Under the pieces are notes generated by a model. That model had not been told where the DNA came from. It ran no database searches and saw only the letters and a program-made list of their open reading frames with translations. A program made the position numbers and the translations under genes. A stretch of DNA of 32,000 nucleotides from Haliangiales bacterium (GTDB lineage: Bacteria; Myxococcota_A; Polyangia; Haliangiales; Haliangiaceae), in the NCBI GenBank assembly GCA_041916575.1, contig JAYRZI010000003.1:36234-68233 (forward strand), written 5' to 3'. Below are positions 6,073 through 28,832 of this stretch, piece by piece (positions within the stretch are counted from its first letter, which is position 1; every line of letters starts with the position of its first letter).

Positions 6073-9000
6073 TCATGGAGCGCGCTGAGAAGTGACGAAG
6101 CCGTCCTGCGCGCCTGCAGATGGAGGACTCGAGGTCGCCCCCCCAAAGGCCATTCGACCATCGGAGGAGAACGCCGCCGTCGCCCCCGATGCCGAGGCCA
6201 CCGTGCCAAAATCGGAGATCGACTGGAGCTGATGCGCGGAGTTGTAGAACAGCACGAGTCCATCCGAGGTTCCGCTGCGCGTCACCGTGCCCACGGCGGT
6301 CGCGATGGACGTCGACACATACCGTCCCGTCGCCAGGATCCGACCGAGCCCGTCCGTCGCCAGCGCAGACAACATGTCGTCCCCCGTACCGCCGATGCGC
6401 CACGACGGTGGCACGATGGCTGCGCCGTTGGCGCGGGCGAGCTTTAGGACGAAGCCATCGTAACCACCCGCCGAGGTGCCCACGGTGGTCAGCGCCGAGG
6501 CGTCGAAGCCGACGCGCAACGTGCCGGTGAACTGTCCAGCGATCACCAGATCTTCGTTGGGCAAGAGCTTCACGTCGTTGACTTGCCCGGCATCGCTCTG
6601 CGATGGGTCCCCGATCCAGGCGGCCCACGACGGCGTCCCCATTTCCAGAGCCGAGCCAAATCGCGCGACCATGCCGTCGGAAGACGTCGTGGTCTTGCTG
6701 TTGAAGCCGAGCTGCACCCTGCCCGTGTAATTGACGGCCGCGTAAGTCCGGCTCTGGCTATCAGCGACCACGTTCTGCGCGTAGCAGCCGCCGGTACCGC
6801 CGAACCTCTGGACCGCTCGCTGGCTGCCTGAGGTGCGATCGAGCCACAACATGTAGCAGTCGTAGTCCACTCCATCGGAGACCAGCGTGCTGGAGCCGGT
6901 CTGCATCGTCCCGTGGAAGTGGCCGAGCGCGACGACATGACCATCAGCGGTCACGGCCAGACCGGTGCCGACGCTGGCCCCAGCACCGGTCAAGAACCGC
7001 GACCAGACCACCGACAGGTCGCTGCCGCGCAGCTTGAGAACAAAGGAGTCGCTGTCGGCCGATGATACGGTGGTAGAGCCAAAGATCGTGGTCCCCGTGA
7101 AGGAGCCGCTCAGGTAGACGTCGCCGCTCGAGTCCGTGGCGACATCGGTGATCGTCGCCGTCCCTTGGCCCATGACCTGGAAACGCCCCACGAGTGCTCC
7201 CTCGCGGTCGTACTTGAGCACGTGTGCGTCGTTGCCCAGGCCAGAGAACGGAGTCTGTGCGCTCTTGCCTCTCTCGATTCTCCCAGCGCCTGCGGTCGAC
7301 GCTGCGACGTACAGGTTTCCAGAGGCGTCGAAGGCGGACGCTGCCACCGAGTCGTAGCCGGTGCCCCCGAGGTGCCTGGTCCACGACGGAGCTTGCCCAG
7401 CGGCCGGGGCTGGATCGCAGAGGTCTGGCAAGTGGTCGAGATCGCGATCGAGGCTGCGATCGCTCGTCGGGCATCCGCTAGACGGGGCAGGCTTGCGCAG
7501 CGCCCACACCGGATTGGCAAACGCGTAGCGCGGCGAGCACTGCCCGCTGAAGCGAAGCGTGTCTGCGGTGTTTGGATTCTTGGCATCGCAACCTCGATAG
7601 GTGCGAGCGAACGCGCGAACGTACGCGCGCGTCGCGCGAGGAGAGATCGCCCCACTCGAAGGATAGTCGTCCAGGTTGAACTGGACGACCCGCGTTCCTC
7701 GGTAGGACTCGGCCTGAGATGGGACGTATCGAAGGTTCTGCCGAGCCGCGCCTTCGGTGGGCAGCCAGTACCCGTCTTGCATGCGGCATCGGCCCGCGCA
7801 CTCGGTGGCGAGAGGATCCGCGATGTACGAGCCACTCGTAGATCCGCGAACGAGATCGGAGGTCTCGTCGAGGTCTCGCCGTGCCCCGTGATCGGCTGGA
7901 GCGTAGGTGCGGGCCCGCGACTCGTTGATGGGATTCAAGCACTCGCCCACACACTGCGGATCGGCATCCACGCCCACGTAGAAGTCGATCCGATCGACCG
8001 TGCCGAACTCGGGCGTGCTGTGCCACTGGGCGATGATCGGAAAGGCCTCGGCACCGTAGAGGTCGACGACCGAGCCCATCGGGTAGTCGCTGTCATCGAT
8101 GATGCCGTTGCGATTGCGGTCGACGACCAGGCGCAGCGCCGGGCCGTCGGTGACGGAGAACCGTCCTTCCGCGAGAGCATCGGCGACCGTGGCCTGGTCG
8201 TGAGAGCTCTGCGCCTCAGGTGCCACCGGATCGACACACGTCGTGTCCGTTGGCCGGCAGCCGGTGCGAGCGCGCCCCGCGAAGACGAGGTTGCGCACTT
8301 TGGCGATCGCCGTATCGTTGGTCGCCGACGTCTCGGTCAGGTACCCTTCGCGCCGGTAGCTCCAGTCGCCGTGCGCATCCGAACCACCGGCCATGAACAA
8401 CCGCCGTGGCTCGCCGGGAGCCAGCCACGAGATCGACGCCGTACGCCCCTGATCGAGCCCCCAGCGCAACAGATGGTCCCAGACATAAGATCCATTGTGC
8501 AGGGCCTGATCGACATCGAAATGAATCTTCTGCCAGCCCCACCGGGCGAGATCATACATGGGGCTGAATCGATAGCTGCGATTGAGCCACCCTGCCATGT
8601 GATTCCCTGAGCTGGTCGCCCCGAGCCAGTTGTAGCCGGTGACGTCGTAGTCGCCTGCGTCGTAGCTCGAACTCACGCGAGCATCTTCATTCCACAGCTG
8701 GAGCCCGACCAGCGTCTGCTGGTCGAACATCTTCTGGTACTGATAGCCACTGTATGGCGCGATGCCAGGCCCCGACCCTGCTCCGCCAGCGGCCAGGGGA
8801 TGAGCCAAGAAAGCAACGCCCTGCTTGCTGCCGATCTCAGGCAGGATACCGCTCCCGGAGGTGCTGCCTTCTAGCGCATGGCGAGTAGCGCCGCCATAGC
8901 GACCGGTCTTGCTTGCCACGAAGCCAGTGGGCTGCTCTGCGAAGCGCGGGAGGTGCAGCAGGTGCTGGCGGCCGACGTTGATTTCATCCAGCCCCTGGGC

Positions 9001-10266
9001 CTCTCCCAACATGTAGGCCGGGAAGCCCCGATGATCGATGAATGGCTGAAAAATGGCGGGGATATCCGCCGCAGAAAACTCTTTGTCACTAAGAGTATGA
9101 TCCTTTGCCCATTTCTCGATGTCGAATACGCGATTGTCTCCATAAGAGTAGACCCAGTACCCCGACCCTGGGGTAAACGTCGTCGGCGCCAGCGCGACTT
9201 CGGGCGTGATGTCGATCTCGGCCCCCAAGAACATCCGTGGAACTCGATTTCGCTCCTGCGGCCAGGAACCGGCGATATCGGCATTGGCTCCCGCAGCGCC
9301 ATGCAGCAAGGTCTGAGCAGCGTTCCAGCGAAGGTCATTCAGGTCACGCAGTCCACGGGAGGTCTCCGAGAGAAGTTCGCTCAAGGAGACATCGACATCT
9401 ACGATCTGCTCCGAGTCCGAAGCGTGGTCGGTAGCGAACACGAAATCGACGCCGAGCGCACCGAGCGCAGCCGCGACGGCTCGATACGAGTAGCCGCTCT
9501 CGCCCTCGTTGTCGGTGCTCTGAGAATGATAGTGGAGATCGCCGTATAGCCACCGATCATCGTCGAACCTGGGCAGCGGGTCAGCCGCCCAGTGGGTTCG
9601 CGCGTAGTTGGTCAGCCGGATCTGCGACGAGGTGCAGTTTTCGAAGGCACTGACGTAGGCCACGAGCTGGAGGGTCTCGGAGGTGTTTGGCAAGGGCACC
9701 CCTGGGTCCCATTTCAGCAGGGCGTGCCACTCGCTGGTATCGTGAATGAGGGTGTGCGCGGTGCAGTCTCCGCGTGAAGGGTAGCAAGCCGTGGTCGATG
9801 GCGGGGCAAGGCCTTGGCTGACAGTAGGCCAGTAGGTCGCCTGGCTCGCCGGCGCGCCCGGCGCGCGCCCAGTGCGTTCGATCCAAGCGAGCTGGTTGGG
9901 AAGAAAGGTCTGAGTACCGGAGGGAAGACCGTTGCGATACCGGCTGACCTCCAGCTTGCAGAAGTTCCATAAGCGACCGTCCCCGGGTGAGACACCAGGA
10001 GTCCCGGGCGAGACGCTAAGAGGGTTGGTGTCTTCGTCGTGGATCGCAATCGTGATGGGCACCGGGTCGTAGCGGCGCGTGCCATCAGGCTGCAGGTTCG
10101 GCTCGATGCGCCACGGGATATCGATGGCGAACTCGAACATGCCCTCCATGCCGTTGAGCTCCTGCGCGACCTGGCTCTCGGACGGACTTGGCGGTGAAGC
10201 GTCGTTGGAGCCGAAGCTGCAGGCGCCGAGCGAAACCGCTACCACGATCGGTTTGAATGGCCTCAT
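6073..10266 (-). CDS. Large exported lipoprotein: split PHP-family metallo-phosphoesterase domain plus C-terminal SBBP-type beta-propeller repeats
   Basis: I place the start at the ATG at plus 10264..10266 (MRPFKPIVVAVSLGACSFG, a lipoprotein signal) rather than 10506. PHP motifs are GDLHYHSQSTDNEG (about 9510..9545), FVFATDH and GGSDAHGDW (about 8363..8389). A TSP3-like DRDLDHLPDLCD follows. From about 7383 to 6076 there are repeated xxDxSGNxYVxGxFxG / DGFVLKL units (FDASGNLYVAAST, TDSSGDVYLSGSFTG, DSFVLKLRG, DGFVLKLAR), typical of SBBP repeats. Confidence 0.8.
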   Translation of the reverse strand: MRPFKPIVVAVSLGACSFGSNDASPPSPSESQVAQELNGMEGMFEFAIDIPWRIEPNLQPDGTRRYDPVPITIAIHDEDTNPLSVSPGTPGVSPGDGRLWNFCKLEVSRYRNGLPSGTQTFLPNQLAWIERTGRAPGAPASQATYWPTVSQGLAPPSTTACYPSRGDCTAHTLIHDTSEWHALLKWDPGVPLPNTSETLQLVAYVSAFENCTSSQIRLTNYARTHWAADPLPRFDDDRWLYGDLHYHSQSTDNEGESGYSYRAVAAALGALGVDFVFATDHASDSEQIVDVDVSLSELLSETSRGLRDLNDLRWNAAQTLLHGAAGANADIAGSWPQERNRVPRMFLGAEIDITPEVALAPTTFTPGSGYWVYSYGDNRVFDIEKWAKDHTLSDKEFSAADIPAIFQPFIDHRGFPAYMLGEAQGLDEINVGRQHLLHLPRFAEQPTGFVASKTGRYGGATRHALEGSTSGSGILPEIGSKQGVAFLAHPLAAGGAGSGPGIAPYSGYQYQKMFDQQTLVGLQLWNEDARVSSSYDAGDYDVTGYNWLGATSSGNHMAGWLNRSYRFSPMYDLARWGWQKIHFDVDQALHNGSYVWDHLLRWGLDQGRTASISWLAPGEPRRLFMAGGSDAHGDWSYRREGYLTETSATNDTAIAKVRNLVFAGRARTGCRPTDTTCVDPVAPEAQSSHDQATVADALAEGRFSVTDGPALRLVVDRNRNGIIDDSDYPMGSVVDLYGAEAFPIIAQWHSTPEFGTVDRIDFYVGVDADPQCVGECLNPINESRARTYAPADHGARRDLDETSDLVRGSTSGSYIADPLATECAGRCRMQDGYWLPTEGAARQNLRYVPSQAESYRGTRVVQFNLDDYPSSGAISPRATRAYVRAFARTYRGCDAKNPNTADTLRFSGQCSPRYAFANPVWALRKPAPSSGCPTSDRSLDRDLDHLPDLCDPAPAAGQAPSWTRHLGGTGYDSVAASAFDASGNLYVAASTAGAGRIERGKSAQTPFSGLGNDAHVLKYDREGALVGRFQVMGQGTATITDVATDSSGDVYLSGSFTGTTIFGSTTVSSADSDSFVLKLRGSDLSVVWSRFLTGAGASVGTGLAVTADGHVVALGHFHGTMQTGSSTLVSDGVDYDCYMLWLDRTSGSQRAVQRFGGTGGCYAQNVVADSQSRTYAAVNYTGRVQLGFNSKTTTSSDGMVARFGSALEMGTPSWAAWIGDPSQSDAGQVNDVKLLPNEDLVIAGQFTGTLRVGFDASALTTVGTSAGGYDGFVLKLARANGAAIVPPSWRIGGTGDDMLSALATDGLGRILATGRYVSTSIATAVGTVTRSGTSDGLVLFYNSAHQLQSISDFGTVASASGATAAFSSDGRMAFGGATSSPPSAGAQDGFVTSQRAP

Positions 10267-10535
10267 GGACGAGGACAAAGCAACCGCCGTGCCGCCGAGA
10301 ACCTGGCGAAATGCAATGAAGGGCCGGTCGGTTTGATGGCTGTCTTCGCCGCGGTTGACAAACTGTGCGAGCGAAACGTCAGCGCGCACCTCGCCAGCGC
10401 CGGGCTCGAGGCCATAGAGCTCGCGACGCGCAGGCGTGAGAGGTCTGCGGATGGACCGCGCATCCCCGACCGAGCTTCTGCAGTGGACTCCCGCAACGGA
10501 CTCCATGGACGCAACATCATGGCGAGGCTTCGACG

Positions 10536-14423: not shown

Positions 14424-14644
14424 CCTGGCCCAGCGCTGGCGGCCGCGCGAGTTTTCGCCGAGCCCAGCCACCTCCCTCGTACCCTTCGCCACATTGCGAC
14501 AACTCGGCACAATCTCACGCTCTTGCCAGGTCCCTTGAATCGCCGCTGCGGTGATTCGTCGTATCGACACCTGGCCACGCCCCCATTCCAAGCGCGCCTG
14601 CTGGCGCGTGGTAGCGTAGCGCCGGCTGTTTCCTGGAGACCTCT

Positions 14645-16426
14645 ATGAAGCACTTGCAAAAGCTCACCATCCTCTTCGGCCTTGCGCTCGGCACCCCCGC
14701 GCTGGCGCAGGTGGTGGTTCCGCCGCCGGCCCCAAGCCAGCCCACCATGGCGCCACCGCCGCCGCCGGCCACGATCAACGCGCAGGTCGCCGCGCGCCCA
14801 GGCTTTGTCTGGGTGGCAGGCCGCTGGGATTGGAACAACGGCCAGTACCAGTGGATCGACGGCCACTGGGAGCGGTCTCGCGCCGACCAGGTGTGGCAAG
14901 ACGGCCACTGGGAGCAGCGCGGCAACGTCTACGTCTGGGTACCGGGTGGCTGGGTCGATCCGCATCGCTACCCGACCGCCGAGCCGCCGCCGCCCGCCGC
15001 GGAGACCCCAGCCACCAGCCCCGGCCACCACTGGACCCCGGGCCGCTGGGACTGGCGCAACGGTCGCTGGGTGTGGATGCCGGGCAAGCTCGTCAAGGAG
15101 CGCCGCGGCTACCATTTCATCCCTGGTCGCTGGGAGCGCCAAAACGATCGCTACCAGTGGATCGAAGGGCGCTGGGAAGAGATCCGATACCCCAACGAGG
15201 CACCGCCCGCTGCGCGCCCCGAGAACCCGGGCGTGCGCGCCGGTTGGACGTGGGTGCCGGGCCACTACGAGTGGCGGCGCGGCGCGTACCAGTGGGTCAA
15301 CGGCCGCTGGGAGCGCGAGCGTCCCGGCAAGAAGTGGGTGCCGGGCCGCTGGGAGCGCCGCAACGATCGCTACGAGTGGATCGGCGACTCCGTGATCGAT
15401 ATCGAGATCCCGCAGTTCCCCTCTGACGCGCCGCCGCCGATCGTCACCGAGAACCCAGGGACCCGCCAGGGCTGGGTCTGGGTCGCCGGACGTTGGGACT
15501 GGCATCAGGGGCAGTTCCGCTGGATCAAGGGCCGCTGGGAGCGTGAGCGCCCCGGCAAGCGCTGGCAGCCCGGACGCTGGGAGCGGCGCAACAATCGCTA
15601 TGAGTGGATCGCTGACGCCTGGATCGATGTGGCGGTGCAGTGGCCCACGCAGGCGCCGCCGCCCAACCCGCCCGAGATCTCGAACGTGCGCGACAGCCAC
15701 ATTTGGGTGCCGGGTCGCTGGGAGTGGCGCGACGGTCGCTACGTGTGGATCGACGGCCGCTACGAGCGCGAGCGCCCCGGCATGCGCCTGGTTCCCGGAC
15801 GTTGGGAGAAGCGCGGTGCGTACTACGAGTGGGTAGCCGAGCAATGGATCGCCGATGCGCCGCAGCGCCCGACGCAGCCGCCGCCGCCCAACCCGCCCGA
15901 GATCTCGAGCGTGCGCGAGAGCCACATCTGGGTGCCGGGCCGCTGGGAGTGGCGCGACGGTCGCTACGTCTGGGCCCCCGGTAGCTACGAGCGCGAGCGC
16001 CCCGGCATGCGCCTGGTTCCCGGGCGCTGGGAGCAACGCGGGGGCTACTATGAGTGGACGCCGGCGCAGTGGATCTCCGTCGAGCCGCAGCCCATCCCTT
16101 CGCCTGCGCCGCAGCCGGCGCCGCCGCGCGCACCGCAACCGCGGGTCGAGAACCCGCCGCCTCCGCCGACGAGCGGGGGGCCTTACCTGTGGATCCCCGG
16201 CGCCTGGGAATGGAGCAACGGCGCCTACGCCTGGGTCGAGGGGCGCTGGGATCGGCCGCGCAGGAACCAGCGCTGGGTGGCCGGCGGCTGGGAGATGAGC
16301 CAGGGCCGCTGGACCTGGACCCCGGGGCGCTGGGAGCGCACCAACCGCAAAGATCGAGGGGACCGCCGCGATGACGACCGTGGTCGCCGCCGCGACGACG
16401 ACCGAGGTCGCCGCGACAACGACTGA
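14645..16426 (+). CDS. Secreted WXXGXW-repeat protein (BcpO-related repeat type), 7 modules, Arg/Asp-rich tail
   Basis: Signal peptide MKHLQKLTILFGLALGTPALAQ with GGAGAC 7 nt before the ATG. Seven ~73-75-aa modules each carry several WxPGRWEWRxGxYxW / GRWERxRPG hairpin-like motifs plus a Pro-rich linker. The tail is RKDRGDRRDDDRGRRRDDDRGRRDND. Confidence 0.85.
   Translation: MKHLQKLTILFGLALGTPALAQVVVPPPAPSQPTMAPPPPPATINAQVAARPGFVWVAGRWDWNNGQYQWIDGHWERSRADQVWQDGHWEQRGNVYVWVPGGWVDPHRYPTAEPPPPAAETPATSPGHHWTPGRWDWRNGRWVWMPGKLVKERRGYHFIPGRWERQNDRYQWIEGRWEEIRYPNEAPPAARPENPGVRAGWTWVPGHYEWRRGAYQWVNGRWERERPGKKWVPGRWERRNDRYEWIGDSVIDIEIPQFPSDAPPPIVTENPGTRQGWVWVAGRWDWHQGQFRWIKGRWERERPGKRWQPGRWERRNNRYEWIADAWIDVAVQWPTQAPPPNPPEISNVRDSHIWVPGRWEWRDGRYVWIDGRYERERPGMRLVPGRWEKRGAYYEWVAEQWIADAPQRPTQPPPPNPPEISSVRESHIWVPGRWEWRDGRYVWAPGSYERERPGMRLVPGRWEQRGGYYEWTPAQWISVEPQPIPSPAPQPAPPRAPQPRVENPPPPPTSGGPYLWIPGAWEWSNGAYAWVEGRWDRPRRNQRWVAGGWEMSQGRWTWTPGRWERTNRKDRGDRRDDDRGRRRDDDRGRRDND
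15644..16093 (+). repeat. 225-bp (75-codon) in-frame tandem duplication inside the WXXGXW gene (copy 1 15644..15868, copy 2 15869..16093)
   Basis: PTQAPPPNPPEISNVRDSHIWVPGRWEWRDGRYVWIDGRYERERPGMRLVPGRWEKRGAYYEW... versus PTQPPPPNPPEISSVRESHIWVPGRWEWRDGRYVWAPGSYERERPGMRLVPGRWEQRGGYYEW.... Long runs are identical at the DNA level, e.g. gagcgcgagcgccccggcatgcgcctggttccc in both copies. Confidence 0.85.
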
Positions 16427-23265: not shown

Positions 23266-26200
23266 GTGACGCAAGGCTCCGGCTCCCTGCCGCCCACCGG
23301 CGACATCGATGAGTTCCGCTTGCTTCGATTGCTCGGGCGCGGCGGCATGGGTGCGGTGTATCTGGCGCACGATACCGTGCTCGATCGCGCGGTCGCGCTC
23401 AAGCTCATGCGAGTCGGCGCCAGCGAAGAGCACCGCCTGCGCTTCCTCACCGAGGCGCGCGCGTTGGCGCGAGTCCATCACCCCAACGTGGTGTCCATCT
23501 ACCGCGCCGGACTCTCGTCGCGCGGCGAGCCCTACCTGGTGCAAGAGCTCGTCAGCGGCACCTCGCTCGATCGCGGCGTCAGACCGGTGCCGCCGCGGCG
23601 CGCGCTCGAGTTGGCCATCGGCATCGCGCGCGGGCTCGCCACCGCACATCGGCGCGGCGTGCTGCACAGAGACATCAAGCCGAGCAACATCATGGTCGAC
23701 GAGACCGGCACGCCGCGCTTGCTCGATTTCGGCTTGGCCAAGTTCACCGGCGCGGCTCGCGCCGAGCCGCCGCCGACCGCCGCCTTCGACGCCACCGCCG
23801 AGCGGCTGGCCGAGCTCGACGCGACGGCGCCCGCCGCCGCGACAGCCGACCTCGGCCGCCCCGCGGCTCTCGACGCCACCGCCGAGCGGCCAGCCGCCCT
23901 CCCCACGACCGCGGCGCGCCACGCCCTCGTCACCGCCGAGCGGCCGGCTCTCGACCTCACTGCCGAGCGGCCCGCGTCTCCCAATCCGTCCATCGATCGC
24001 CGCGCCGAGGCCTGGCCGGTCACCGAGCACGACCTCGCCGACGGCTCCCACCCCGCCGATACCAGCGTCGGCACGATCCTCGGCACCCCGCGCTACATGG
24101 CGCCCGAGGTGTGGACCGGCGCGCCCGCCACCGCGCGCAGCGATCTGTACTCGCTCGGCGTGGTCCTCTACGAGCTGCTCGCCGGCGCGCCACCGCACCC
24201 CCAGACCGAGCTCGACGAGCTGCGCAGCGCTGTGCTCGAAGGGCCCGCGCCGGCCTCGCTCCGCGAGCAGGTCGCCGAGCTGCCTGTCGACTTGGCAAGC
24301 CTGGTCGCGCGCTGTCTCGAGCGAGAGCCGAGCGCTCGCCCCGAGTCGGCCGACTCCGTGCTCTACGAGCTCGAGCACATCGCGGCCGGCGCCCCGCCCA
24401 TCCCCGAAGGCAGCCCGTACCGCGGCCTAGCGCCGTTCGAGGCCGAGCAGCGCGCGCTGTTCTTCGGTCGCGGCGCCGACATCGCCGCCATCGTCGACCG
24501 GCTGCGCAGCGAGCCGCAGGTGGTGGTGGCCGGCGACTCCGGGATCGGCAAGTCGTCCCTGTGCCGTGCCGGCGTGCTGCCCGCGCTCACCGCCGGTGCT
24601 CTCGCCGACGGACGCACCTGGACCTCGACCGTGGTGGTGCCGGGGCTGGCGCCGAGCGCCGCGCTGGCCGCCGCCTTCGAATGGCAACTCCCCGAAGGCG
24701 AGCTGCCTCCCCCGGGCGAGCTGGCCCAGGAGCTGGCGCGCCGCACCACGGCCGACCGAGGCCGCGTGCTGCTCCTCGACCAAGCAGAGGAGCTAGTCAC
24801 CCTCGCCAGCCCACGCGAGGCCGAGCGCGCCGCCACGCTCCTCGCCGCCCTGGCCGAAGGCCTGCCGGGCGTGCGCCTGCTGGTCGCCGTGCGCGGCGAC
24901 TTTTTGACCCGCGTCGCCGCCCTGCCCGCCCTGCGCGGCACGCTGACCCGCAGCCTGCACCTGGTCCGCGGCCTGTCACCAGAAGACGCACGCGCCGTGG
25001 TCATCGAGCCGGCGCGAGCCAAGGGCGTGCGTTTCGAGAGCGAAGAGCTGGTCGCCAACCTGGTGAGCTCGATCCTCGAGCGGCCCGCGGCCTTGCCTTT
25101 GTTGCAGTTCGCGCTCGCCGAGCTGTGGACACACCGCGATCTGGAGCGCTCCGTGATCCCGGCGCGCGCGCTCGAAGAGCTCGGCGGCGTCGCCGGGGCG
25201 CTCGCCAGCCACGCCGATCGCGTGCTCACCGCGTTGGCCGCGCCAGAGCGCGCCGCCGCGCGCCGAGTGCTCCTGGCGCTGGTGACCGCCGAAGGCACCA
25301 GGAGCAGCCGCGGGCGCAGCGAGCTGGTCGCCGGCTCAGACACCGCCGCCGCGCTCGAGGCGCTGGTGCGCGGCCGCCTGGTGGCGGCGCGCGACGTCGC
25401 CGATGGCGAGCCGCGGTACGAGCTGGCGCACGAGTCGCTGCTCTCGGCTTGGGGCACGCTGCGCAGGTGGCTCGACGAGATCGCAGGTGAGCGCGGCGTG
25501 CGCGCCCGGCTCGCCGCCGCCGCCGAGGAGTGGCACCGGCTCGGCCGCCGCCGCGAGCTATTGTGGCGGCGCTCGCAGCTCGCCGAGACCGCCCGGCTCA
25601 GCGAGCTGCCGCCGCGCGAGCACGCCTTCCTGCGAGCCAGCCGCCGCGCCCAGCACCTGCGCACGTCGCTGGCGGTGGCGCTCGCCGCCGCCGTGCCAGC
25701 GGTGGCCGGCCTCACCTGGTGGAGCGTGTCGGCGCGCGAGCACGCCCACCGCGTCGCCGCCGTCGACTACCGGCGCGCCGCCGCCGAGGACGCCATGCGC
25801 AACGCTCGCGCCGAGCTGACCCAGGCGACCCGGCTCCGCGCCGAAGCGGTGTCACTGTTTCGCGGCGCCGCCGCCCCCAAGCTCACCGCGCCGGTGCCCG
25901 AGCTGGCGGAGGCGCTACGCCAGCACTACGAGCGCGCGGAGCAGGATCGGAACCAGCGCTGGGAGCTGGCCGAGCGCCGCTTCACCGCGGCGCGAACCGC
26001 CATGCGCGAGGCCGCGCGCCAGCTCGAGGGCGCGCTCGGGCTCGGCGCCAACCGCCACGCGGTGGCGCGCCAGCTCGCCGACGTGGTCGCCGCGCAGCTC
26101 GCGCTCGCCGAGCAAGTCGGCGACGAGACAGCGATCGCCGATCTCGAGCCGCGCCTGGCCGAGTACGACGATGGCTCGAGGCTCGAGCGCTGGCGCCGCC

Positions 26201-27297
26201 CGGTGCAGGTCACCGTGCGCGCCGCTGGCGCCGAGCGCATCAAGCTCAACCGATACAGCGCCACCGAAGCGGGCCAACTTTTCGAGGAGAACGTCGCCGC
26301 CGGTCATGGGCCATCGCTCACCGCGCAGCTTGCCCCTGGCTCGTACCGCGCCCTGCTCTCGACCGCCGGCATGACGCCAGTGGCAGCGCCGTTCGTGGTG
26401 AGCCGGGCCAAGCCGCTGTCGCTCCTGATCCCGCTGCCCGCGCCCGGATCCGTCCCGGCCGGCTTCGTCTTCATCCCTGCCGGCACGTTCCTGCACGGGC
26501 TCGATGACCACCGCGAGCCGGACCTGACCTGGGTGCGCAAGAACTTCTTCCGCGCCCCGCCACTGCACCAGGAGACGCTCCCGGCCTATCTCATCGGCCG
26601 CCACGAGGTCACCTTCGGCGAGTACCTGCGCTTTCTGCGTACGCTGCCTGCCGACGAGCTGGCCCGCCGAAGGCAGAGCGGAGACCCGTCGACCGAGCGC
26701 TCGGTGCGGCTCGAGGGCGACGGCCGCGGCCCGTTCACGCTCACCCTGCGCCCGCTCCAGGTCGCCTACTCGGCGCGCGAAGGCGAACCCATGATCTTCG
26801 CCGGTCGCCGCCAGCGCCAGCAGGTGCGCTGGGAGGACACGCCGGTGGTCGGCATCGACCGCGCCGACGCCGAGGCCTATGCCGCGTGGCTCGCGACCAG
26901 CGGCCAGGTGCCTGGCGCGCGCCTCTGCACCCCGCTCGAGTGGGAGCGCGCCGCGCGCGGCGCCGATGGCCGCCGCTTCCCGCACGGCAACTCGCTGGCG
27001 GCGCACGAGGCCAACATCGACCTCACCTACCGACGCGACGCCATGAGCCCCGATCCCGTCGGCACCTATCCCGCATCCGCCTCGCCGTTTGGCCTCTACG
27101 ATCTCGCCGGCAACGCCTACGAGATGGTGGCCAACGGCTGGGAGCTCTCCATCCGCGGCGGGAGCTGGTGGAGCGGCCCCACCTCCGCCGCCACCATGAA
27201 CGTGACCTCGATCCAGGCCACCCGGCGCGATGTCTACATCGGCCTGCGCCTGTGCGCGAGCTGGCCGGCTACGGCGCCGGCGCCACGTAGCCGATGA
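23266..27297 (+). CDS. Multidomain Ser/Thr protein kinase, STAND-type P-loop NTPase, TM helix, coiled/Ig-like spacer, FGE/SUMF1-like domain
   Basis: I prefer the GTG at 23266, because the track ATG at 23161 overlaps the divergent oxidase start codon. Kinase motifs: GRGGMGAVY, VALK, HRDIKPSN, DFG, GTPRYMAPE. NTPase motifs: SPYRGLAPFEAEQRALFFGR, Walker A GDSGIGKSS (24532..24558), Walker B VLLLDQAEE, and HESLLSAWGTLRRWLDE. TM helix: LAVALAAAVPAVAGLTWW (about 25660..25728). FGE-like motifs: FVFIPAGTF, YLIGRHEVT, PLEWERAARG, GLYDLAGNAYEMV, RGGSWW (about 26458..27270). Confidence 0.85.
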   Translation: MTQGSGSLPPTGDIDEFRLLRLLGRGGMGAVYLAHDTVLDRAVALKLMRVGASEEHRLRFLTEARALARVHHPNVVSIYRAGLSSRGEPYLVQELVSGTSLDRGVRPVPPRRALELAIGIARGLATAHRRGVLHRDIKPSNIMVDETGTPRLLDFGLAKFTGAARAEPPPTAAFDATAERLAELDATAPAAATADLGRPAALDATAERPAALPTTAARHALVTAERPALDLTAERPASPNPSIDRRAEAWPVTEHDLADGSHPADTSVGTILGTPRYMAPEVWTGAPATARSDLYSLGVVLYELLAGAPPHPQTELDELRSAVLEGPAPASLREQVAELPVDLASLVARCLEREPSARPESADSVLYELEHIAAGAPPIPEGSPYRGLAPFEAEQRALFFGRGADIAAIVDRLRSEPQVVVAGDSGIGKSSLCRAGVLPALTAGALADGRTWTSTVVVPGLAPSAALAAAFEWQLPEGELPPPGELAQELARRTTADRGRVLLLDQAEELVTLASPREAERAATLLAALAEGLPGVRLLVAVRGDFLTRVAALPALRGTLTRSLHLVRGLSPEDARAVVIEPARAKGVRFESEELVANLVSSILERPAALPLLQFALAELWTHRDLERSVIPARALEELGGVAGALASHADRVLTALAAPERAAARRVLLALVTAEGTRSSRGRSELVAGSDTAAALEALVRGRLVAARDVADGEPRYELAHESLLSAWGTLRRWLDEIAGERGVRARLAAAAEEWHRLGRRRELLWRRSQLAETARLSELPPREHAFLRASRRAQHLRTSLAVALAAAVPAVAGLTWWSVSAREHAHRVAAVDYRRAAAEDAMRNARAELTQATRLRAEAVSLFRGAAAPKLTAPVPELAEALRQHYERAEQDRNQRWELAERRFTAARTAMREAARQLEGALGLGANRHAVARQLADVVAAQLALAEQVGDETAIADLEPRLAEYDDGSRLERWRRPVQVTVRAAGAERIKLNRYSATEAGQLFEENVAAGHGPSLTAQLAPGSYRALLSTAGMTPVAAPFVVSRAKPLSLLIPLPAPGSVPAGFVFIPAGTFLHGLDDHREPDLTWVRKNFFRAPPLHQETLPAYLIGRHEVTFGEYLRFLRTLPADELARRRQSGDPSTERSVRLEGDGRGPFTLTLRPLQVAYSAREGEPMIFAGRRQRQQVRWEDTPVVGIDRADAEAYAAWLATSGQVPGARLCTPLEWERAARGADGRRFPHGNSLAAHEANIDLTYRRDAMSPDPVGTYPASASPFGLYDLAGNAYEMVANGWELSIRGGSWWSGPTSAATMNVTSIQATRRDVYIGLRLCASWPATAPAPRSR

Positions 27298-28714
27298 TCT
27301 CGGCGCCGCCGCTGCCGTCTAGCTCGTACCCCGCCGCCCGCATCGCCGTGTGCTCCATCGTGGTCGACACGTAGTCGCCAGAGCTCGTGTGCTTGTACAG
27401 CCGCAGCGGCACCAGGCTCGGGTTGTAGCGACTGGCATAGACGTACCCCTCCCAGCTCGCGCCCCACGCCGGGCTCGAGGCGCTCCCCGCGAACCGCGAG
27501 TCGTTGGTTCGCGCCAGCACTCGATCGCCGCCATCGGGGCGCTCGAACATCGACACCTCGACGAGCTGCGACTGCGGCACGCTCAGCGGCGGCACCCGCA
27601 TCAAGATGGCATCGGTGCCGGCGTGCTCGTAGCCCGTCCACGGCGTCTTCTGCTGATTCTGATCGTAGTAGCCGCGCACCGTGGTCACCCAGTCCGAGCT
27701 GCGATGCCAGCGCTCCAGGCGGAGCTGGTTGTAGCGACTGGCAAAGAACATCACCGCGCCGTCCTGGGCGATCATGTCATCGATGTCTGCATCGCCGCAG
27801 TCACGAATCGTGGTCACGCAGGGCGCGGTGATCGCCGGCCAACGCAGCTTGCCCACGCAGGTGGCGTTGCGGTGCCCGGGCGGAAACGCCGTCTCGAAGT
27901 AGTAGTCGTGGGGGTTGGGCGGCCAGTCGCTGAGCTTGAGCGACAAGATCTGCTGCCCGGGCGCCACCTGATTGATCCCCACGTTGTCCTGAAACGAGAT
28001 CAGGGTACCCACGCGCGTGCTGGTGGCGCCGTTGGCGCAGTAGTCCGCAGTCACGCCTTGCATGCAGGCCTGATGCGCGCCCCAAAACGGGCTCGTAGCA
28101 GAGGCCGTAGGCGCATAGGCCCAGCGCACGCACTTGCCCCCCGCGCCGTCGAGACATGCGAACGTGATCCGGCTCGGCATCGTCAGGTGCTCACCCGTCC
28201 GGGTCACGACTCCGGCCAGCGGGATCGCCTCGGCACATACGGTGACCACCTTGCTGGTGCTGGCGTCGCGTACGTCGAGCCGGTAGTAGGTCACGCTCAG
28301 ATCGCCGCGCACCACCGTAGGCAGCACCGTGTACCGGCCATCAGGGGTCGGCATCGCGATGCCGTTGAAGCGCGGATCGGCCCCCGCGAACGTGCCGTCG
28401 ATGCCGGTGGAGCGCAGCGAGGCGCCGCCGATCACCGACACCACCTGCGCAAACTTGCCGCGGTTGCCGGTGGTGAGCACGTTGAAAAACTCGGTCGCCG
28501 TGTCGAGCGTATAGGGAGGCGCATCGAGCACCGCGCCGAGCAGGTAGCGCCCGTTGGGCTCCTCATCCTGGCAGGCGGCGCGTAGCTGCGACGAGCAACG
28601 CGGCCGGCCAGCAACTGGCTCTACTTGCGGCTCGGCCGCCGGGGTCTCGCCGCTCTCGCCCGCCACACAGCCGGTGGCGACGACGATGAGAATGGAAGCA
28701 AGCAACGTTCGCAT
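27269..28714 (-). CDS. Exported lipoprotein with an 'ADYC' motif domain (resembles proteins annotated as ADYC domain-containing in myxobacteria, from memory)
   Basis: Start at MRTLLASILIVVATGCVAG (ATG at plus 28712..28714) with AGGAGG upstream and lipobox ATGC. The central GKCVRWAYAP...WGAHQACMQGVTADYCANGATSTRVGT contains the ADYC motif. Conserved Cys are spaced throughout. The 3' end overlaps the kinase gene by 29 bp (convergent). Confidence 0.75.
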   Translation of the reverse strand: MRTLLASILIVVATGCVAGESGETPAAEPQVEPVAGRPRCSSQLRAACQDEEPNGRYLLGAVLDAPPYTLDTATEFFNVLTTGNRGKFAQVVSVIGGASLRSTGIDGTFAGADPRFNGIAMPTPDGRYTVLPTVVRGDLSVTYYRLDVRDASTSKVVTVCAEAIPLAGVVTRTGEHLTMPSRITFACLDGAGGKCVRWAYAPTASATSPFWGAHQACMQGVTADYCANGATSTRVGTLISFQDNVGINQVAPGQQILSLKLSDWPPNPHDYYFETAFPPGHRNATCVGKLRWPAITAPCVTTIRDCGDADIDDMIAQDGAVMFFASRYNQLRLERWHRSSDWVTTVRGYYDQNQQKTPWTGYEHAGTDAILMRVPPLSVPQSQLVEVSMFERPDGGDRVLARTNDSRFAGSASSPAWGASWEGYVYASRYNPSLVPLRLYKHTSSGDYVSTTMEHTAMRAAGYELDGSGGAEIIGYVAPAP

Positions 28715-28729: not shown

Positions 28730-28832
28730 CGGCATGCCGCCCTACATAGCAATCCCGAAGCCACCCGTAACCACCCGACACCCTTGAAGTGACCACACCT
28801 GGCCCCCTCTCACACGCGAAAGCGGCATGCCG
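28730..28832. promoter_or_regulatory. Two copies of the 10-bp perfect palindrome CGGCATGCCG (28730..28739 and 28823..28832) bracketing the ADYC-gene upstream region
   Basis: Read directly. Copy 1 sits just upstream of the RBS. Copy 2 lies 93 bp further upstream and about 20 bp past the GH13 stop. Confidence 0.35.

Follow-up and report, generated by a model that had tools for sequence, protein, structure and literature searches.

A single polypeptide that combines a Hanks-type protein kinase, a STAND NTPase and a domain with the fold of the formylglycine-generating enzyme (FGE) raises the question of whether it acts as a self-contained conflict system or as the receptor of a wider signaling pathway. 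Such a polypeptide is encoded on the forward strand at positions 23266-27297 of a 32,000-nucleotide stretch of DNA from a Haliangiales bacterium (assembly GCA_041916575.1, contig JAYRZI010000003.1, positions 36,234 to 68,233), which is referred to below as the window. On balance, and with some reserve, we favor the view that this protein is a bitopic inner-membrane receptor Ser/Thr kinase gated by its STAND module, and that it is part of a conserved module signaling to sigma-54-dependent transcription of a partner gene that encodes an ADYC-domain protein.

The open reading frame (ORF), its translation and the Pfam matches define a product of 1343 residues (GTG start, stop codon included in the above coordinates), comprising from the N-terminus a Hanks kinase, an nSTAND1 NTPase, a transmembrane (TM) helix, a helical stalk, a β-sandwich and an FGE-like domain. 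The same 1343-residue form is found in an independent gene call and in a query-identical database protein (P0001); a longer, ATG-initiated ORF from 23161 would run into the start of a divergent FAD-oxidoreductase gene. Scans for sigma-70 promoters and terminators around the gene returned nothing informative, and no Rfam family or tRNA gene was detected in the window. The 120 best database matches, which share 40-100% identity with the query and are mostly 1220-1430 residues long with a few outliers, all combine the Pkinase, nSTAND1 and FGE-sulfatase domains. Those with organism names come from Myxococcota (Stigmatella, Polyangium, Sorangium and Kofleriaceae), and the family is large and apparently specific to this phylum.

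The kinase domain (aa 18-375, 23317-24390, plus strand; Pfam Pkinase, E 4.7e-44, matched in two stretches) retains every catalytic motif, namely GRGGMGAVY (aa 24-32), VALK (aa 43-46, with K46), HRDIKPSN (aa 134-141, with D136), DFG (aa 154-156) and YMAPE (aa 277-281, with the APE at 279-281), and these are conserved across the 120 homologues. By fold and motifs it is therefore a predicted Hanks-type (eukaryotic-like) Ser/Thr protein kinase. Its activation segment is atypical, measuring 128 residues from DFG to APE against the usual 25-35, and houses an Ala/Pro/Thr-rich low-complexity insert (aa 163-270, 23752-24075, plus strand) with four "TAER" repeats and, at the DNA level, a 53-nucleotide repeat (D8; 23777-23829 and 23861-23913). 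Long, hypervariable inserts at this position are a trait of the family, with a median of about 90 residues; the loop is of normal length in L002 and L003, both from Kofleriaceae.

The kinase is followed by a STAND NTPase (aa 384-763, 24415-25554, plus strand) which matches positions 1-378 of the 379 in the nSTAND1 profile (PF20703, E 3.9e-92) and is accordingly classified, by sequence, as a full-length member of the nSTAND1 clade. The lead-in SPYRGLAPF lies at aa 383-391, the Walker A motif GDSGIGKSS at aa 423-431 (24532-24558, with K429), the Walker B motif VLLLDQAEE at aa 501-509 (24766-24792) and the helix HESLLSAWGTLRRWLDE at aa 722-738. Throughout the family, both Walker motifs are highly conserved, as are further positions of nSTAND1. 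The ratio of nonsynonymous to synonymous substitution rates (dN/dS), which throughout this work comes from the single pair formed by the window receptor and its 83%-identical orthologue (L038), with bootstrap ranges where computed, is 0.19 for this domain (0.13-0.25). The conservation of the Walker motifs and this low ratio together argue for a maintained NTPase function, and membership in the family suggests that the module may act as a nucleotide-dependent oligomerization switch.

A single TM helix, SLAVALAAAVPAVAGLTWW, with its N-terminus inside, is predicted at aa 801-819 (25666-25722, plus strand). In the query the segment is borderline, with a Kyte-Doolittle value of 1.71 over a 19-residue window in an Ala-rich protein; an uncharged hydrophobic run of 19-29 residues occurs at the matching aligned position in all 120 homologues, where the hydropathy peaks at 2.04 on average. 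The 15 residues flanking the segment contain on average 5.98 Lys and Arg on the N-terminal side versus 3.83 on the C-terminal side, and the excess lies on the N-terminal flank in 105 of the 120. The helix and the charge bias, taken together, support an N-in orientation, in which the kinase and the NTPase would be cytoplasmic and the C-terminal 520 residues, including the FGE-like domain, periplasmic. An AlphaFold model of aa 790-1343, computed with 67 sequences (pLDDT 94.1, pTM 0.90), shows the TM segment as part of one unbroken helix (residues 2-80 in model numbering) that continues into a stalk and is succeeded by three more helices (89-137, 141-161 and 165-178; pLDDT >90), a β-sandwich (strands within 191-265) and the FGE fold. 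The predicted periplasmic part thus begins with a helical stalk or bundle (aa 820-985, 25723-26220, plus strand), followed by the β-sandwich (aa 986-1060, 26221-26445, plus strand), which is PEGA-like in some relatives, PEGA (PF08308) being annotated in four homologues and matched by one scanned member.

The protein ends in a domain of the FGE or C-type-lectin fold (aa 1066-1335, 26461-27270, plus strand), identified by Pfam FGE-sulfatase (PF03781, E 3.4e-27, aa 1066-1293), by sequence matches to PDB entries and by Foldseek, whose matches in the PDB comprise CalU17 (3e-16), ToxD, OvsA, pFGE/SUMF2, PvdO, FGE, PorK, EgtB, TvpA and TaqVP. The Foldseek probability is 1.00 for FGE, pFGE and other proteins of the fold, and the biosynthetic proteins CalU17, ToxD and OvsA are the best matches in both sequence and structure; non-catalytic versions, namely pFGE/SUMF2, PorK and variable proteins of diversity-generating retroelements (DGRs), are also found. 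In human FGE, whose reference sequence as used here agrees with chain X of PDB 1y1e at all 286 residues compared, the catalytic C336 and C341 sit in the seven-residue loop MCHRSYC. A profile alignment places a seven-residue gap at precisely this loop in 60 of 60 family members; beyond RGGS the Cys frequency stays at or below 7% in every column, and the only conserved cysteines of the domain are C1221 (99%) and C1330 (100%). The segment RGGSWWSGPTSAATM lies at aa 1297-1311. Hence the fold is present and the catalytic cysteine pair is absent, and the domain is predicted to be no formylglycine-generating enzyme. It shares the fold with SUMF1 (FGE) and SUMF2 (pFGE) and, like the latter, lacks the catalytic pair; it differs from SUMF1 in the deletion of the MCHRSYC loop and in its anchorage to a membrane receptor. 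Given the missing loop, the name [quoted passage not shown], which NCBI gives to members of the family alongside "nSTAND1 domain-containing NTPase", is misleading; some relatives are named "SUMF1/EgtB/PvdO family nonheme iron enzyme". The original prediction, made from the letters of this stretch alone, had proposed a complete N-terminal Hanks kinase, a STAND NTPase between it and a TM helix, a helical region with a short β-rich segment beyond the membrane, an FGE-sulfatase fold devoid of catalytic cysteines that would be unlikely to generate formylglycine, and a topology with an outside sensor and the STAND and kinase inside; all of these proposals are supported by the profile matches, the comparison with homologues and the structural model.

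The same prediction took the gene to stand alone as a single-gene system, which is contradicted by its neighborhood. On the minus strand, at 27269-28714, lies a gene for a 481-residue ADYC-domain protein (Pfam PF20032, E 8e-25), convergent with the receptor gene and overlapping its 3' end by 29 nucleotides. The protein begins with a lipoprotein-type signal peptide, MRTLLASILIVVATG, which ends in VATG directly before Cys17, the lipobox cysteine, and alignments show seven invariant or near-invariant cysteines, i.e. that of the TADYC motif and six further ones; the lipobox and the conserved cysteines fit an extracytoplasmic protein. Its overall dN/dS is 0.29, and our literature search found no paper mentioning the ADYC domain.

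Of the kinase-anchored loci, all 10 whose flanks are complete have an ADYC gene adjoining the receptor gene; in an eleventh (L002) the two are separated by 3.2 kb. These loci span 40-83% receptor identity and carry unrelated upstream genes. The ADYC gene is the immediate 3' neighbor in the 83% orthologue (L038), which also retains the synteny with housekeeping neighbors; in L039 (57% identity), where the upstream genes differ; in L040 (49%), where it is on the same strand as the kinase gene; in Stigmatella aurantiaca (L041); beside both paralogues of Polyangium aurulentum (L042 and L049); in L003 and in a Kofleriaceae metagenome-assembled genome (MAG; L051); and in Sorangium (L050). The association also holds in the reverse direction. 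Word-indexed searches found 15-16 ADYC proteins, and a closer alignment of ADYC against metagenomes added five short loci; among the distinct ADYC-anchored loci with readable 3' flanks (L048, L043, L044, L046, L053 and L054/55), the convergent 3' end of a receptor-family gene was present in six of six. The pair may be convergent or co-directional and its upstream genes vary, while the pairing itself is constant.

The 3' overlap of the two genes is exactly 29 nucleotides in the window (27269-27297), L038, L039, L048 and L053, whose proteins are 47-83% identical; other loci have gaps of 3-36 nucleotides or a 64-nucleotide overlap. With the 29-nucleotide overlap there is no space for a terminator, and convergent transcription could cause interference. 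In Sorangium sp. So ce131 (L050, 10814-13327) two divergent ADYC genes lie beside one receptor gene.

A link to transcription emerges from the region upstream of the ADYC genes, which was scanned for the sigma-54 consensus TGGCAC-N5-TTGCW with 11 scored positions, requiring GG and GC in register with 10 nucleotides between them. The window contains a -24/-12-type element, TGGCTTCGGGATTGCT (28748-28763, minus strand), that ends 34 nucleotides upstream of the ADYC ATG and matches 8 of the 11 positions; the block is conserved in the orthologue L038, where its flanks diverge. Matches upstream of ADYC reach 10/11 in L039 and L051 and 8/11 in L050, where only the second of the two ADYC genes (L050b) carries such an element. 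The ADYC-anchored metagenome loci L043-L047, which were looked at only after the prediction and hence provide an independent test, all have 10/11 matches ending 17-32 nucleotides before the start codon (L046 and L047 being near-identical there), and two further loci among L052-L055 have matches of 9/11 and 10/11. Matches of 9-10/11 recur in the same place in nine distinct loci other than the window, and an element within about 60 nucleotides of the start is found for 10 of 13 distinct ADYC genes with a promoter of their own, against a background of 4.4e-4 per position for matches of at least 8/11. The scan, over roughly 470 kb, gave seven sites of at least 10/11, every one of them in front of an ADYC gene. 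Judged by the GG/GC dinucleotides and their spacing, the element is a predicted sigma-54-dependent promoter. Two 9/11 sites in L048 (4515, plus strand; 6769, minus strand) lie 60-85 nucleotides upstream of small hypothetical genes beside its block of ADYC, receptor and activator genes, and the activator may control these genes as well.

The corresponding activators are encoded in relatives. In 6 of 14 loci the receptor gene is immediately preceded, on its own strand, by a gene for a sigma-54 activator (enhancer-binding protein), and the two often overlap by 1-4 nucleotides; this arrangement likewise contradicts the notion of a single-gene system. Three of these activators are of the FHA type (L040, L048 and L051), their genes overlapping the start of the kinase gene, two are of the GAF type (L041 from Stigmatella and L050 from Sorangium), and that of L004 has no recognized N-terminal domain. 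The activator, kinase and ADYC genes of L040 form a co-directional block, and an 8/11 sigma-54 site lies 48 nucleotides upstream of its activator gene. Full-length identities of 55-59% among the FHA-type and 66% between the GAF-type activators suggest that each constitutes an orthologous set co-inherited with the module. The ADYC protein of the window has the long form that accompanies FHA-type activators, which leads us to expect that an activator of this type is encoded in another part of the genome, away from the module. FHA-domain sigma-54 enhancer-binding proteins reportedly take part in the development of Myxococcus xanthus (Jelsbak, Givskov and Kaiser 2005). The idea common to those proteins and the present module is that Ser/Thr kinases feed sigma-54 transcription through a phosphothreonine-binding FHA domain; the literature searched describes no specific kinase, STAND, FGE or ADYC module, and in the window the activator is unlinked. 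In Stigmatella aurantiaca (CP002271, 10.19-10.21 Mb) the block of GAF-type activator, receptor and ADYC genes is placed between rsmG/gidB-parAB and mnmG/gidA, a cluster that is usually origin-proximal.

The above observations may be accommodated in a scheme of five steps. A periplasmic event, namely ligand binding that possibly involves the ADYC lipoprotein, would be transmitted through the stalk and the TM helix and would permit NTP-dependent oligomerization of the STAND module. In the oligomer, kinase domains brought close to one another would trans-autophosphorylate, the long Thr-rich insert of the activation segment being a conceivable site. The phosphorylated kinase would then engage a sigma-54 enhancer-binding protein, of the FHA type in the closest sub-family and of the GAF type in another, and the activator would drive the sigma-54 promoter of the ADYC gene, whose product could serve as an inducible output in the periplasm, feed back on the sensor as its partner, or do both.

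Several points weigh against this scheme. The 32-kb window contains no gene for a sigma-54 activator, so that the output step rests on relatives. Its own promoter element matches only 8 of the 11 positions, and the 15-nucleotide sigma-54 core consensus, allowing up to two mismatches, is not enriched across the window as a whole; the signal becomes visible only by position relative to ADYC starts across loci. In four loci in which ADYC is co-directional with the kinase gene, it has no promoter element of its own, so that separate induction of ADYC is not a general rule. AlphaFold gave a poor model of ADYC (pLDDT 52), and neither Foldseek on that model nor a PDB profile search gave any relative. 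The action of the kinase on the activator, by phosphorylation or recruitment, and a contact between ADYC and the sensor are steps that we infer, together with the direction of signaling, the oligomerization of the STAND module and the nature of the ligand. Finally, the nSTAND1 domain is otherwise typical of predicted conflict systems, and the evolutionary behavior of the periplasmic half, considered below, would also fit an immune sensor.

The connection to conflict systems has a basis in earlier work. Kaur, Iyer, Burroughs and Aravind (eLife 2021), who defined nSTAND1, catalogued proteins with an effector (S/T/Y kinases being listed), a STAND NTPase and an FGE-sulfatase (FGS) domain as predicted counter-invader systems, enriched in multicellular bacteria and sometimes present in more than one copy per genome; in their model the FGS domain is an intracellular lectin-fold sensor of invaders that is often diversified by DGRs (PMC8195603). 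Dore et al. (PNAS 2024, PMC10907252) described DGR-targeted nSTAND1 or NACHT proteins with C-type-lectin (CLec) domains as "antigen sensors", some CLec domains being predicted to be periplasmic by virtue of TM segments. The novelty of architecture implied by the original prediction is thereby removed, as the architecture is already in PMC8195603 and the proteins already bear NCBI names. The window receptor shares with the NTPase-FGS systems the syntax of an N-terminal effector, a central nSTAND1 and a C-terminal FGS domain (PF03781) in one polypeptide. It differs from them in that its FGS domain, mounted on a stalk and β-sandwich beyond a TM helix, is predicted to be periplasmic rather than intracellular, is under purifying selection and has no DGR nearby, and in that its conserved partners are sigma-54 activators and a lipoprotein of the ADYC type; no mention of sigma54 or of a periplasmic location turned up when PMC8195603 was searched by term. 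With the STAND-CLec proteins of Dore et al. it has in common an nSTAND1 (or NACHT) domain followed by a C-terminal FGE/CLec domain, from which it differs in the lack of variable and template repeats (VR/TR) or a reverse transcriptase at its locus and in having a kinase as the effector. Our literature search found no experimental work on the kinase-nSTAND1-FGS architecture and no paper describing a module of receptor, ADYC and sigma-54. What is new is therefore a membrane-spanning branch of nSTAND1-FGS proteins with a conserved ADYC and sigma-54 context, which is absent from the literature searched.

Two readings give the family a role in immunity or conflict, and both appear improbable. In the first, NLR-like one, the lectin-fold sensor would recognize an invader or a non-self molecule such as a surface of phage, prey or kin, the STAND module would oligomerize, and the kinase would act as an effector that shuts down or kills the cell through mass phosphorylation, with ADYC in the role of an accessory sensor or a decoy. 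Apart from the published catalog of counter-invader proteins and the existence of DGR-diversified versions, this reading draws on the similarity of the kinase domain to the defense kinases PD-T4-6, mad6 and PglW (PADLOC, NCBIfam), on the occurrence of at least two paralogues in Polyangium aurulentum, on the AbiEii and NNH1 genes that lie a few kb beyond the module in Stigmatella (L041), and on the rapid divergence of the periplasmic half. Among 154 close homologue pairs the cytoplasmic domains show identities of 0.81-0.87, whereas those of the stalk, the β-sandwich and the FGE-like domain are 0.57, 0.56 and 0.68. For the window receptor and its orthologue, dN/dS is 0.12 in the kinase N-lobe (bootstrap 0.06-0.20), 0.88 in the activation-segment insert and 0.30 in the stalk (0.18-0.50), and the β-sandwich, at 55% identity, is the fastest-evolving folded domain with a value of 1.18 (0.66-2.04), which, coming from one pair, is not significantly above 1. 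One pair of relatives (P0009 and P0016) in addition looks mosaic: the kinase N-lobe, nSTAND1 and the segment before the TM helix are 96-97% identical and the kinase C-lobe 89%, and past a breakpoint at the TM helix identity falls to 33-35% in the TM helix, stalk and β-sandwich and to 58% in the FGE-like domain, which could reflect a sensor swap by recombination or a chimera of metagenome assembly.

Other observations speak against the NLR-like reading. The best 25 of 33 PADLOC matches cover the kinase domain only. The sensor here is predicted to be periplasmic, whereas the published model has an intracellular one with frequent linkage to DGRs; the scanned ORFs of the window include no reverse transcriptase, and no repeat in it pairs with the 3' end of the gene (26.9-27.3 kb). 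The FGE-like domain, in whose surface elevated diversity had been expected by the original prediction, has the lowest dN/dS of the protein (0.11, bootstrap 0.06-0.17), the fast evolution residing in the β-sandwich instead, and the equivalent of the DGR variable region (aa 1210-1329) yields 0.06-0.09. DGR diversification is rejected for this locus, given the lack of a reverse transcriptase among the scanned ORFs, the lack of a template repeat and this low ratio, although a DGR may lie elsewhere in the genome; the likeness to DGR variable proteins of the Mtd/TvpA type is one of fold only (2y3c, 5vf4). Moreover, the locus lies among housekeeping genes with conserved synteny, and the sigma-54 activators and promoter indicate a transcriptional output and not abortive infection. 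An immune role is conceivable but unsupported, and the housekeeping neighbors, stable synteny, sigma-54 activators and lack of a DGR favor signaling to transcription no less strongly.

In the second of these readings, which we regard as equally doubtful and which could be described as a "transmembrane NLR" pathway, the STAND-gated receptor kinase, by means of its lectin-fold domain and fast-evolving β-sandwich and together with ADYC, would read the exterior and trigger sigma-54 transcription through the FHA- or GAF-type activators, with ADYC as a secreted effector or a feedback component. If true, this would amount to an inducible, outside-in surveillance of prey, kin, phage or envelope damage that joins three modules not known to cooperate and is nearer to receptor-kinase or Toll-type signaling than to abortive infection.

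It is decidedly unlikely that the protein is a plain receptor Ser/Thr kinase, in which the STAND domain is a scaffold or spacer devoid of any NTP-gated switch and activation proceeds by ligand-induced dimerization of the PknB type. An N-terminal kinase, a single TM helix and an extracytoplasmic sensor do constitute the classic bacterial layout, which the family shares with PknB and PrkC, and which some relatives match exactly. A filter-free search with only the periplasmic half recovered 522 representatives (clusters at 50% identity) at E <= 1e-30; the 145 best new ones include 76 with kinase, STAND and periplasmic module and 16 with kinase and periplasmic module and no STAND, the rest being fragment-like. 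By appearance 14 of the 16 STAND-less representatives are N-terminally complete proteins of about 800-870 residues (e.g. P0146, P0148, P0161, P0163, P0172 and P0202). The occurrence of the periplasmic module directly on a Hanks kinase implies that the STAND domain is an optional insert in this receptor lineage, and ties the family to ordinary receptor kinases. Its retention in 76 of the 145 representatives, with the Walker motifs and low dN/dS described above, speaks against a passive spacer, and the window receptor departs from PknB and PrkC in having 380 residues of STAND between kinase and membrane, an FGE-fold instead of a PASTA sensor and an activation-segment insert of about 100 residues. 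A contig search with the single receptor protein returned mostly generic kinases, and of the family only L002-L004. A Pkinase-nSTAND1-WD40 protein in a Chloroflexi MAG (L005, 7863-12548) is a cytoplasmic counterpart of the kinase-STAND cassette, and no ADYC gene was detected in that 18-kb locus.

That the FGE-like domain is an enzyme of some other chemistry (non-heme-iron or otherwise, EgtB, OvsA, PvdO, CalU17 or ToxD-like) modifying ADYC or another periplasmic substrate, with the kinase and STAND domains reporting on or regulating it, is very improbable: its best matches among biosynthetic FGE-fold proteins, its strong conservation, the seven conserved cysteines of its obligate neighbor and the nonheme iron enzyme name of relatives favor such an activity, whereas the FGE cysteine pair is absent, the additional DinB-type domain that EgtB and OvsA require is not detected by Pfam in the periplasmic part, inspection of the ADYC sequence revealed no CxPxR-type motif, and for several FGE-fold proteins (pFGE, PorK, DGR variable proteins) the role is confined to structure or binding.

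Elsewhere in the window, a minus-strand ORF of 1477 residues (6073-10506) has no Pfam match, lies in a stretch of lower G+C content (0.61-0.66 versus about 0.70 elsewhere) and has a third-position G+C below the 0.8 cut-off used to choose likely genes. On the plus strand, 14615-16426 encodes a 603-residue WXXGXW-repeat protein (PF12779, E 1e-45) that derives from degenerate 225-nucleotide tandem DNA repeats (D1-D4 and D7). A direct repeat of 115 nucleotides (165-279 and 1303-1417; 77% identical, 1138 nucleotides apart) flanks a minus-strand ORF with a weak match to the thrombospondin type 3 repeat.

STAND and NLR-type NTPases are generally seen as cytosolic sensors, and in the present family one would instead occupy the middle position, with a kinase on one side and a sensor in the periplasm on the other. 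The analysis replaces an isolated, odd fusion with a circuit of three parts that can be tested, namely the receptor kinase, the lipoprotein ADYC, and a sigma-54 promoter together with its activator. It provides a first functional context for the uncharacterized ADYC domain, and suggests how Ser/Thr phosphorylation might be coupled to sigma-54 transcription in Myxococcota. Were the immune reading true, the module would represent a transcription-based, outside-in pathway of bacterial innate immunity; if the signaling reading is true, it would be an instance in which the STAND switch has been reused in ordinary envelope sensing.

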